Shown: positions 52,959-55,816 of the stretch, one piece after another
How the letters are laid out: each line of letters begins with the position of its first letter
How positions within the stretch are numbered: position 1 is the stretch's first letter
Position numbers and translations under genes: made by a program
Notes under the pieces: generated by a model
Seen by the model: only the letters and a program-made list of their open reading frames with translations
Database searches by the model: none
Told to the model about the DNA's origin: nothing
DNA from: Alphaproteobacteria bacterium
GTDB taxonomy: Bacteria > Pseudomonadota > Alphaproteobacteria > Bin95
DNA length: 64,000 nucleotides
Assembly (NCBI GenBank): GCA_964291285.2
Contig: OZ219787.1
Coordinates: forward strand, 1,088,001 to 1,152,000
Direction of reading: 5' to 3'

Positions 52959-53044
52959 GGGCGGGCGGTCGAGCCCCATGCAGCGGGAAGCGGAGCCGTG
53001 AAAGCGTCGGGCCGGGACGGACAGGAGAGCGACTGTGTTGTCGG

Positions 53045-53977
53045 TCAAGCTGTTTTCCACGGGGTTCGGTCTCTGAGGATAGCGTTGAGGATTGTGAGGA
53101 GCTTTCGTGTGACGGCGGTGAGGGCAGCCTTTTTGGTTTTTCCCTCCGCGATCAGGTGGCGATAGAAGCGTTTGAGGGTTGGGTTATGCCTGGAGGCGGT
53201 GAGGGCAGCCATGTAGAGGGTTGCGCGGACGTTGGCGCGTCCTCCCCATATGGTTCTCTTTCCGCGCATGGTTCCGCTGTCGCGGTTGAAGGGCGCGACG
53301 CCGACGAGCGCGGCGATGCGCCTTCGGCTGAGGGTTCCGAGTTCGGGGAGATCGGCGATCAGGGTTCGTGCGGTGGCGTCACCGACCCCGGGAACGCTTT
53401 TGAGGAGGTCCTCGGCCTGGCGCCATGCGGGGGATTTGCGGATCGCATCGCCGAGCTCGGTTTCGAGGTCGGAGAGTTCGCGTTGCAGGGTGGCGAGCAC
53501 GCGGTCGACGCTGCGGATCGTGCGACGGCTTGTGAGGCGCCTCCTGCGGTTTCTCTCCGCGGTCATCATCGCGACGATCTGGCGCCGCCGGGCGACCAGC
53601 TCGGCGAGCGCGCGGGCCTGCTCGTCAGGCACCGGACGGGGCTCGGGATGGACCGCCTCGGCGAACTGTGCGATCGCCGCCGCATCGAGGGCGTCGGTCT
53701 TGGCGAGCCGGCCGGTGGCGCGGGCGAAGTCCCGGATCTGGCGCGGGTTGACCACCGCCAATGGCAGGCCCGCCGCGCAGAGCGCCGCCGCGACCGTGAC
53801 CTCGAAGCCGCCCGTCGCCTCCAGCACCACGAGGGCAACCTCCAGCCCGCCCAGGCGCGCCGACAACTCTTCCAGGCCTTTGCCGTCGCGCGCGACGGCA
53901 AAGGCCTCCCCGGACGGGCGCAGATGCACGTCCAGACGATCCTTCGCCACGTCGATGCCAACGAATATCCGTTCCAT
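53045..53977 (-). CDS. IS110 DEDD recombinase/transposase (310 aa)
   Basis: VGIDVAK, VLEATGG, KTDALDA, VPGVG, GVAP..RDSG (catalytic Ser region), R.TLYMAA. Confidence 0.95.
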
Positions 53978-53979
53978 GT

Positions 53980-54107
53980 CCCGTCCTTGCAAATGCGGTC
54001 TCACACTGCGGACCAAGCGACTGTTCGGGTTCAAAGGAACAGCGGACGGGGAACCATGCTCTCCCGCGGTCTTCATAACCTGGGTGCTAGCGGTCTCCCG
54101 TCCGCTC
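53980..54107 (-). ncRNA. Bridge RNA, target- and donor-binding loops (5' part displaced to about 55568-55600)
   Basis: ACAGTCGCTTG (54014-54024) equals the element's circle junction; GGAGAG (54059-54064) equals the target flank 53024-53029; enclosing stem AGCGGACGGG / CCCGTCCGCT. Confidence 0.8.
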
Positions 54108-54153
54108 GGTCGTGTCCCCAGGGGTGGTGTAGGAGCTGAAGCTTCCGGTGGTA

Positions 54154-54221
54154 GCTGTGGGTAAGTGGCCCGCCGCCGCGACCGTCTGGAGTCAGGCGGC
54201 GGCGGGCCACTTACCCACAGC
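54154..54221. repeat. 26-bp perfect hairpin in the IS256 leader
   Basis: GCTGTGGGTAAGTGGCCCGCCGCCGC-N16-GCGGCGGCGGGCCACTTACCCACAGC. Confidence 0.9.
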
Positions 54222-54286
54222 GGAGGCCATCGCGGTGCCGGTTAGGGTTGGGCTGTCACAGTCCACCTGACCGGAGGAGTACCACG

Positions 54287-55489
54287 ATGACCACCACCGA
54301 CATGATGACCCTGCGGGCGCTGTTGGAGAAGAGTTCCGACGCCGACCTGCTTCGCGAGATGATCGGGTTCACGGCCGCGCGTCTGATGGCGCTTGAGGTT
54401 GAGGGCCTTGCGGGCGCCGCGCACGGCGAGCGCTCGCCGGACCGGATCACGCAGCGCAACGGCTACCGGGACCGGGTCTGGGAGACGCGGGCCGGCACGG
54501 TCGAACTGAAGATCCCGAAGCTGCGCAAGGGGAGCTACTTCCCGGGCTTCCTTGAACCGCGGCGGATGGCGGAGAAGGCGCTGACGGCGGTGATCCAGGA
54601 GGCCTACATCAAGGGCGTATCGACCCGCTCGGTGGACGACCTGGTGCAGGCGATGGGCATGTCGGGCATCTCCAAGAGCCAGGTGTCGCGGCTGTGCGGC
54701 GAGATCGACGACAAGATCCGCGACTTCCTCGACCGGCCGCTGGAGGGCGACTGGCCGTATCTCTGGCTTGACGCGACCTATGTGAAGATGCGCGAGGCCG
54801 GGCGCGTCGTCTCGGTCGCGGTCACCATCGCGGTGGCGGTCAACGATCAGGGCCGGCGCGAGGTGCTCGGCATGGCGATCGGCGCGTCCGAGGCCGAGAC
54901 CTTCTGGACCGACTTCCTGCGCTCGCTCGCCCGCCGCGGCCTGCGCGGCGTCAAGCTGGTGATCTCCGACGACCACAAGGGCCTGAAGGCCGCCGCCACC
55001 CGCATCTTCGGCGCCACCTGGCAGAGATGCCGCGTCCACTTCATGCGCAACCTGCTCGCCCATGCCGGCAAGCAGGGCCGGCGCGTCGTCTCCGCCTTCG
55101 TCACTACCGCCTTCGCCCAGGAGGATGCAGACAGCGCCTCCGCCCAGTGGCGCCAGGTCGCCGACCAGCTCAGGCCCAAGGCGCCAAAGCTCGCCGCCAT
55201 CATGGACGAGGCCGAGCACGATGTTCTCGCCTACATGACCTTCCCGGCCGCGCACCGCGCCAAGCTGCACTCGACAAACCCGCTCGAACGCCTCCACGGC
55301 GAGATCAAGCGGCGCACAAACACCGTCGGCATCTTCCCCAACGAGGACGCCATCACCCGGCTGATCGGCGCAATCCTGCTCGAGCAGAACGATGAATGGG
55401 CAGTCCAGAGAGCCAGATACATGACGCTGGAATCCATCGCTCCCGTGAGCGACAATACAACCGTCAAGTTGCCCGCCGTGGCAGCCTGA
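54287..55489 (+). CDS. IS256 (Mutator-type) transposase
   Basis: [59 protein letters not shown]. Confidence 0.95.
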
Positions 55490-55816
55490 GCGTTCCGGCC
55501 CTACCCGCCGGACACCGCTACGGACGCCAGGCTCTTACACCACCCGCGGGGGCACGATCGTCCGCTCCCGCTGTTGCGACTATAGCTGCAACAACGATCC
55601 GGAGAGATACAAGGTGCGCGCGCGCGCACGGGCCGGGGTTGCGGATGTCGCACCAGGTTGCCAACGGCCGGGGCGCCCGGCCCGTACCGAAGGCCATCGG
55701 GATATCCGACCGGGTGGATAAGGGGCGGCGGCCGCCCCCTCGTCATCCCGGACGGGGCGGCGAAGGAGACGCGCGGCGCTTGCATGTTGCGCGGCGCTCG
55801 GCGACAAGGGGAGACG

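Follow-up and report, generated by a model that had tools for sequence, protein, structure and literature searches.

The window analyzed here, a 64,000-nt stretch of Alphaproteobacteria bacterium contig OZ219787.1 (positions 1,088,001 to 1,152,000 of the forward strand), carries on its minus strand a composite element made up of a 1126-bp IS110-group insertion sequence (IS; both CT copies counted), a nested 1451-bp IS256-type element and a 9-bp duplication (Table 1). Element boundaries were drawn by comparison with nine intact copies, and an empty-site joint, 53027→55612, agrees with them. The host genome (6.13 Mb in five contigs, 68% G+C) holds 13 copies of the IS110 element at 100% identity, nine of them uninterrupted and each 1126 bp long with the CT at both ends included. 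The 12 left ends and 13 right ends found in the genome share an identical boundary, at which the CT is not assignable to element versus flank, and no copy with different ends was seen among them. On the minus strand the left end opens CT-TGTATCTC at 55613 and the right end closes ...TTGACCGACAACACAGTCG-CT at 53028, with 176 nt of non-coding sequence before the ATG of the recombinase gene and 17 nt after its stop codon. This is the organization expected of the IS110 group, namely a long left end, a short right end, CT at both junctions and no long terminal inverted repeats. The empty target, ...CGCGCAC-CT-CTCCTGTC, is found in a publicly assembled contig of organism B (run X4; flanks ~91–92% identical) that joins 53027 to 55612, and the two letters that fit either side of this joint correspond to a single CT. 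Thirteen identical copies are in themselves only indirect signs of recent movement. An earlier note on this DNA, made from the letters alone, had proposed an IS621-type IS110 element with readable bipartite guides; its coordinates and motifs were all recovered base-exact, and the proposal is borne out by protein family, by covariation of two loops and by the agreement of donor and target with their guides across relatives. Overall, we conclude that the region is very probably a copy of an IS that moves by bridge-RNA-guided recombination in the manner of IS621.

The recombinase gene encodes a 310-aa protein in which Pfam recognizes both DEDD_Tnp_IS110 (PF01548, E 3.4e-24) and Transposase_20 (PF02371, E 4.2e-20), and to whose residues 4–307 the IS621 chain 8wt6_A (PDB 8wt6) aligns with an E value of 1.5e-38. 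All five catalytic residues described for IS621 (D11, E60, D102, D105 and S241; Hiraizumi et al. 2024, PMC11208158) have counterparts in this alignment (D9, E53, D95, D98 and S234), and the protein combines the RuvC-like DEDD domain with a Tnp domain bearing the catalytic serine, as members of the family do. The enzyme had been singled out as compact; its length of 310 aa stands, but this size is unexceptional, as it falls inside the ~300–460 aa range published for bridge recombinases (Durrant et al. 2024, PMC11208160).

Table 1 Features of the composite element and its flanks (window coordinates)
Feature	Coordinates	Strand	Basis or remark
Composite element	53028..55613	minus	1126-bp IS110-group IS (both CT copies counted), nested 1451-bp IS256-type element and 9-bp duplication
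Gene for 310-aa DEDD/Ser bridge recombinase	53045..53977	minus	Pfam and IS621 alignment
CT core, right end	53028..53029	minus	13/13 right ends
CT core, left end	55612..55613	minus	12/12 left ends in genome
Left donor ACAGTCG	53030..53036	minus	last 7 nt before core; equals left donor guide
Right donor TGTAT	55607..55611	minus	left-end sequence
-35-like TTGACC	53043..53048	minus	right end, overlaps stop codon
-10-like TATCTC	55604..55609	minus	inside left end; 3/6 consensus letters
Predicted 5′ stem-loop (element positions 18–45)	55569..55596	minus	hairpin in minimum-energy fold of intact copy; cut from loops by insert
Target-binding loop module (element positions 49–112)	54042..54105	minus	outer stem, 11-nt 5′ loop, 4-bp hairpin, 12-nt 3′ loop
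Left target guide region CUAGCAC+CC	54082..54090	minus	effective part GCAC + core guide, 54082–54087
Right target guide GGGAG+AG	54059..54065	minus	reverse complement CT-CTCCC; relatives covary
Putative target-loop handshake dinucleotide CA	54057..54058	minus	C96 invariant among relatives
Donor-binding loop module (element positions 125–174)	53980..54029	minus	alignment invariants, inner-stem covariation, covariance-model match
Left donor guide ACAGUCG+CU	54016..54024	minus	5′ side of donor loop; same sense as right end + core
Right donor guide AUUUGCAAG	53986..53994	minus	9 nt, discontiguous; 3′ side of donor loop
Putative donor-loop handshake dinucleotide GA	53984..53985	minus	G169 in 50/51 distinct relatives
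Left target positions 1–7 CGCGCAC, flank	55614..55620	minus	only GCAC (55614–55617) matched by guide
Right target positions 10–14 CTCCT, flank	53023..53027	minus	complementary to GGGAG, one G-T wobble
Nested IS256-type element	54108..55558	plus	transposase 54287–55489; imperfect terminal inverted repeats
9-bp duplication, copy next to target-binding loop	54099..54107		comparison with intact copy
9-bp duplication, second copy	55559..55567		comparison with intact copy

The IS256-type insert and its duplication were resolved against an intact copy, and the intact left end was folded, a check of the kind that the earlier note had suggested. Its minimum energy of −74.2 kcal/mol (z = −3.56) was equaled by none of 200 shuffles, and the predicted fold comprises a 5′ hairpin followed by two stem-enclosed internal loops with a small hairpin in each. 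For comparison, 80 related loci (61–93% protein identity) were fetched from Alphaproteobacteria, many of them metagenome-assembled genomes and including Reyranella, Azospirillum and Methylobacterium, and 43 distinct left ends were aligned with MAFFT. Across these 43 relatives, 85.5% of cells in the named structure pair, compared to 36–45% when partners are slid by one to three columns; the covariation score was matched by 0 of 500 shuffles, and both-sided changes occur in 21 of 37 pairs overall. In the target loop, pairing reaches 97.1% in the outer stem, where 11 of 13 pairs show compensatory changes, and 99.4% in the inner hairpin; the inner stems of the donor loop are 100% and 92.1% paired. 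The two-loop architecture is thus present in the fold and in the structural covariation alike. Furthermore, several single-base landmarks recur: A58, A82, G63 and G87 are invariant or nearly so, and subtracting 15 from each of these positions gives the IS621 bases A43 and A67, which are flipped out, and G48 and G72, which are syn; A153 and G158, likewise invariant or nearly so, lie at an offset of 3 from IS621 A150 and G155 (correspondences of position only; IS621 numbering as in PMC11208158).

Both halves of the donor can be read from the donor-binding loop. Joined at the core, the ends of the element read ACAGTCG-CT-TGTAT on the minus strand, and the 5′ side of the loop carries the left donor and core in the same sense. 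Right ends of relatives were located by a pattern that ignores each locus's own guide, which avoids circularity, and one right end was obtained in 74 of 77 loci. The guide 7-mer is identical to the right-end 7-mer in 72 of these 74, across three co-varying donor classes (ACAGTCG in 40 loci, ACGGTCG in 23 and ACAGCCG in 9); the remaining two loci, L075 and L081, hold copies of one and the same element, in which guide and end disagree at a single base. On the 3′ side of the loop, AUUUGCAAG can pair discontiguously with CT-TGTAT (A-T14, U-A13, UU out, G·T12, C-G11, A-T10, A-T9, G-C8), and base 164 with donor position 12 forms the combination G/T in 64 loci, G/C in three, A/T in three and G/A in one. 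These comparisons refine two earlier assignments. An 11-of-11 donor match, ACAGTCGCTTG at 54014–54024, is correct in all its letters, but only nine of them belong to the left donor guide, the last two being, as judged against relatives, a variable linker base and the first base of the stem; and TGCAAG (53986–53991), given as the right donor guide, is present but is only part of the full 9-nt guide.

The target-binding loop presents GCUAGCACCCA on its 5′ side and GCGGGAGAGCAU on its 3′ side, within which the previously proposed guide letters CTAGCACCC (54082–54090) and GGAGAG (54059–54064) both occur. To delimit the guided positions, loops and natural targets were compared for the 12 paired insertion sites of this genome together with 63 of 77 loci of relatives (14 were dropped for contig ends, for lack of a right end or for a misaligned left end), giving 65 distinct element–site pairs in 40 loop classes; as a control, loops were paired with targets of other classes in 1000 permutations (Table 2). 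Right-target (RT) positions 10–14, with 60–64 Watson-Crick matches among 65, and left-target (LT) positions 4–7, with 42–62, all exceed the maximum of these class-wise permutations, so that targets do covary with the loop sequences. Since LT 1–3 are at chance, the guided target of this clade is four positions, the CT core and five positions. RT 15–16 were considered as further guided positions and rejected: they are conserved in the host genome (G, then C/T), yet pair at chance across relatives, and we attribute their local conservation to a shared repeat family. Among 51 distinct loops, the core guide of the left target reads CU in 38 and CC in six; this element has CC.

Table 2 Guide–target pairing by position among 65 distinct element–site pairs
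Target positions	Watson-Crick matches of 65	Permuted mean	Permuted maximum
LT 1–3	10, 15, 18	16.7, 13.2, 14.8	not exceeded; at chance
LT 4–7	42, 59, 60, 62	19.9, 38.5, 16.6, 54.7	34, 47, 28, 59
RT 10–14	63, 61, 64, 61, 60	53, 27, 23, 25.8, 30.8	58, 37, 34, 37, 39
RT 15–16	16, 11	11.5, 11.0	not exceeded; at chance

Within the host genome, a consensus resembling GCAC-CT-CTCC had been predicted for the other insertion sites, and one was found. CAC precedes the CT at 10 of the 12 paired sites and [G/A]CAC at 9, CTCC[C/T] follows it at all 13 right ends, and 9 of the 12 sites fit the complete 11-mer [GA]CAC-CT-CTCC[CT]. The suggestion that the window insertion tolerated mismatches to the left guide is factually true, but two of the three mismatches fall at LT 1–3, where pairing is at chance level, and the third is the core-guide C variant.

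On the model of IS621, these parts would operate as follows. Excision would join the right and left ends at the CT core, and the resulting junction would place the conserved -35-like TTGACC 17 nt from the -10-like TATCTC, from where transcription of the left end could be driven. The RNA would then fold as a 5′ hairpin and two internal loops, with GCAC+C(C) on the 5′ side and GGGAG+AG on the 3′ side of the target loop specifying the 11-nt [G/A]CAC-CT-CTCC[C/T], and the 310-aa DEDD/Ser recombinase would exchange strands at CT. C96 and G169 are placed as the handshake guides of IS621 are (PMC11208158), and a corresponding role, in which each would pair with position 7 of the other DNA, is suggested by their pairing potential: C96 is complementary to donor G7 but not to target C7, and G169 is complementary to the target base at position 7 (C in 11 of the 12 sites of this genome) but not to donor G7.

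The joined ends do contain TTGACC, 17 nt and TATCTC, as the earlier note had it. Of 53 distinct right ends among the relatives, 51 have TTGAC at an unchanged distance from the terminus, and left-end positions 2–4, 6 and 7 are invariant in the 43 relatives; by analogy with IS621, the joined sequence may function as a junction promoter. In the window copy, this arrangement is broken by the nested element, whose length of 1451 bp follows from comparison with the intact IS110 copy. Its transposase is of the Mutator/IS256 type (PF00872, E 2.9e-121), and the transposase, the terminal inverted repeat and the 9-bp duplication are all traits of the IS256 family; the genome holds 17 complete copies, the other 16 of which show 8–9-bp duplications. 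The joint 54098→55559, with nine shared letters, is seen in contigs of runs X1 and X2, which stem from uninterrupted copies; depth ratios between these two runs hinted at different copy numbers but were set aside, as summed contig depth is not a measure of copy number. Owing to the 9-bp duplication, element positions 47–1126 are still contiguous, which puts the insert between the 5′ hairpin and the target-binding loop, inside neither loop. Both loops remain contiguous with the recombinase gene and are cut off from the putative junction promoter, which is 1.45 kb away. Transcription of the window copy's own bridge RNA from that promoter is improbable, and the copy, both of whose ends are intact to be read by the donor loop, most likely relies on RNA and protein from the nine intact copies.

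The copy might alternatively be self-sufficient even while integrated, through a hairpin-less bridge RNA that starts from a promoter located at, or within, the left end of the IS256-type insert, or that arises by read-through. Consistent with this, a covariance model of the two loops, built from relatives, matches 53976–54108 over all 134 positions at 136.3 bits (138.3 bits for intact copies), and the target-loop stem regains its 5′ strand through the 9-bp duplication. A simple promoter scan of 52900–55750 on both strands, however, returned no sigma-70-like site, and the IS256-type transposase gene points away from the loops. We regard self-sufficiency as unlikely and favor supply in trans by the intact copies.

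Interruption of the left end is not confined to the window copy. Four of the 13 copies carry inserts at element positions 47–77, and in the three others (L101–L103: G000 C2:1145190-1148469, a C2 copy at 1294678-1295741, and C3:1703377-1708049) the same 30-nt stretch of the left end is interrupted. One invader is an IS4-like insert (DDE_Tnp_1; 48 copies) at element positions 63–68, one such copy being without its left end, and another is a 3.5-kb insert with two transposase genes at positions 73–77. An insertion hotspot in the DNA of the target loop was considered and set aside, as at least two of the three independent insertions are accounted for by the sequence preferences of the inserted elements: the IS4-like insert shows GYTARC-like duplications at most of its 48 copies, and a 2.5-kb element shows 5-bp AGGTT-like duplications. 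A group II intron in two of the interrupted copies was likewise rejected, as Rfam found none there and the insert encodes a DDE transposase.

The genome also offers a view of target specificity. Unoccupied [GA]CACCTCTCC[CT] occurs only eight times genome-wide. Five of the 12 insertion sites lie inside a dispersed repeat of ~200 bp (102 BLAST matches), of which 76 unoccupied copies span the site; three of these are perfect and 49 differ at a single position (31 at core C, 3 at core T, 7 at position 10, 7 at position 11 and 1 at position 5). All five occupied members of the family are perfect, and the 49 single-mismatch copies are all empty. Were occupancy independent of sequence, finding the five occupied members among the eight perfect ones of 81 would have a probability of ~2e-6 (hypergeometric). 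The repeat itself has a GC-rich hairpin, CGCGCGC-CTGATT-GCGCGCG, and a variable site that is the IS110 target in a minority of copies (an example lies at window ~27025–27124); Rfam names nothing in it.

This association raises the alternative that target choice is set mainly by DNA resembling repetitive extragenic palindromes (REP), in the form of a GC-rich hairpin recognized by protein, with the RNA match being secondary or coincidental. The five sites in one family, with their hairpin ~20 nt upstream of the core, speak for it, as does the left flank of the window copy (55614–55629, minus strand), a perfect GC palindrome, GTGCGCGCGCGCGCAC, that abuts the core and recalls the target stem-loop of ISPpu10, which a preprint gives as an added determinant (bioRxiv 10.64898/2026.03.19.712850). 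The 11-mer, however, is shared by sites outside the family (7 of 12), the family copies with one guided-position difference all stand empty, and the flank changes with the loop sequence among relatives. We consider control by repeat DNA very unlikely and retain guidance by the RNA; the hairpin may add to the RNA match but cannot replace it. A left end that serves solely as structured 5′ leader sequence or for protein binding, with donor and target matches arising by chance, is hardly credible: the 3′ strand of the donor loop does overlap the ribosome-binding region of the recombinase gene, and some of the conservation could serve translation, but this explains neither the guide–donor identity in 72 of 74 loci across three co-varying classes nor position-specific guide–target pairing far above all 1000 permutations.

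Several points weigh against a bridge-RNA-guided IS. Transcription of the RNA and recombination are deduced from sequence by comparison with IS621, and of 21 runs surveyed none is an RNA run of this organism. The -10-like hexamer of the joined ends is weak, with three of six consensus letters, and the promoter scan came back empty, although it is blind to the junction. No junction of right end to left end, as in a circle, was among the two joints listed from the X1, X2, X4 and X5 contigs, which drop rare forms and are thus uninformative either way. In the alignment of relatives, the 5′ hairpin is unsupported (49.9% of cells paired), being variable and probably misaligned, and the outer stem of the donor loop hardly varies and so carries little information. 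Shared ancestry of the relatives causes the shuffle controls to overstate significance, which the slid-partner and class-wise permutation controls partly address. Of the Rfam 15 families, searched against the window and the intact left end, none reached its threshold, the sole sub-threshold match being sX15 on the opposite strand. Regarding the guides, the left target guide has C rather than U opposite the core T, the register read from the sequence is one base off a simple transfer of IS621 numbering, and 3 of the 12 sites in this genome show left-target mismatches (GCGAA, GCGC and CCAC), these three lying outside the repeat family and having a perfect right target. Set beside these points are the observed anatomy, protein homology, fold covariation, guide agreement in the genome and among relatives, and exact empty site.

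The sX15 match is of some interest in its own right. RF02234 (sX15) has a gathering score of 55, which its two matches miss at 32.9 and 28.1 bits, both of them opposite to the strand of the recombinase gene; in the window the match spans 53975–54119 on the plus strand, opposite to the bridge RNA. In the other direction, searching with the bridge-RNA model recovers, on the minus strand, the sX15 locus of pXCV183 (36.4 bits, E 5e-7; L104 1395-1527, equivalent to pXCV183 116394-116526). The published description of sX15, a small RNA of Xanthomonas, includes asX7, reported in 2011 to be complementary to sX15, with 10 homologues in Stenotrophomonas; both strands were detected as RNAs (PMC3300014). 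Because the model hit is on the asX7 side, the Rfam sX15 family seems to represent the strand antisense to an IS110-type bridge RNA; the annotation of pXCV183 shows no IS110 transposase gene beside that locus. In the host genome, a weaker hit of the model (44.8 bits, E 5e-7) falls at G000 C1:7898-7991 on the minus strand, in a segment that is 81% identical to part of the left end and is probably the relic of a related element. As for its surroundings in the window, the composite element occupies intergenic space between a gene at 55817–59182 (plus strand) for a 1121-aa protein with Type ISP restriction-modification domains (Type_ISP_C, N6_Mtase, Eco57I) and one at 52376–52795 (minus strand) for a glyoxalase-fold protein.

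Bridge recombinases are under development as programmable tools to insert, invert or excise DNA, and orthologues with readable guides are starting material for such work. For the present element, dozens of relatives with different target loops fix the guided positions from comparison alone, ~80 near-identical repeat copies that differ at single guided positions, of which only perfect ones are occupied, provide a specificity read-out within one genome, and the window copy, with putative promoter and 5′ hairpin apart from the loops, is a natural split that bears on mobilization in trans. More speculatively, these observations could describe a clade with a shifted partition (a 4-nt left guide, a 5-nt right guide and three apparently non-guiding loop bases), with discrimination against single mismatches at the core and positions 10–11, and with RNA loci possibly transcribed from both strands; as a whole we hold this to be doubtful. 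If it were true, and if the stringency were intrinsic rather than a product of history, nature would have supplied, in this 310-aa enzyme, a bridge recombinase of high fidelity whose target geometry differs from that of IS621, and, were both strands transcribed as sX15 and asX7 of Xanthomonas suggest (2011), an antisense RNA may hold the bridge RNA in check. The guide partition of the clade may already be contained in the supplementary covariation data of Durrant et al. 2024.

Among known elements, whole-element matches at 64–69% nucleotide identity were obtained with IS110-family elements on plasmids of Martelella, Rhizobium, Sinorhizobium, Roseomonas and Methylorubrum, the last of which is annotated as 'IS110-like element ISMex17 family'; no closer named element was found in the collections searched (ISfinder not among them). 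The ISCro4 transposase (PDB 9t56) also matches the recombinase (E 2e-38). The IS1111 group shares the recombinase family but is described as having a short left end, a long right end and long sub-terminal inverted repeats (PMC11208160), compared to left and right ends of 176 nt and 17 nt here, and the placement of the guide RNA in a long right end that characterizes IS1111 is not seen, as the structured RNA lies in the left end and the right end extends 17 nt past the stop codon. With ISPpu10 of Pseudomonas putida, as the preprint presents it (bioRxiv 10.64898/2026.03.19.712850), the element has in common an IS110-type insertion in a conserved intergenic repeat with a GC-rich stem-loop 5′ of the target, but in the present genome the repeat family accounts for only 5 of 12 sites.

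The closest parallel in mechanism is IS621 of Escherichia coli, whose recombinase is alignable end to end with that of the present element and has the same DEDD/Ser organization. As published, IS621 has a long left end, a short right end, a CT core and a promoter split across the joined ends, its RNA combines a 5′ hairpin with target and donor loops, and its 5′ guides read the bottom strand and its 3′ guides the top strand (PMC11208160, PMC11208158); the present element resembles it in these respects, with a split promoter and a 5′ hairpin that are predicted. The resemblance extends to the discontiguous right donor guide, nine bases on seven (A157–G165 in IS621), with G·T at donor position 12 (PMC11208158), to counterparts of the flipped-out A and the syn G, and to bases placed as handshake guides. 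The elements differ in the length of the protein (a 328-residue chain in the PDB entry versus 310 aa) and in the guides. IS621 uses a 9-base left and a 4-base right guide (PMC11208160), compared to 4 + CT + 5 here, right guides of more than four bases having been noted for some orthologues (Durrant et al. 2024, PMC11208160). Furthermore, the 5′ side of the target loop is 11 nt long here and includes three core-distal bases that do not pair with natural targets, and the core guide for the left target is CC rather than CU, in an element known from sequence alone. The bridge-RNA mechanism has been in print since 2024 (PMC11208160, PMC11208158); the element in the window leaves it unchanged and is a well-documented example of it.

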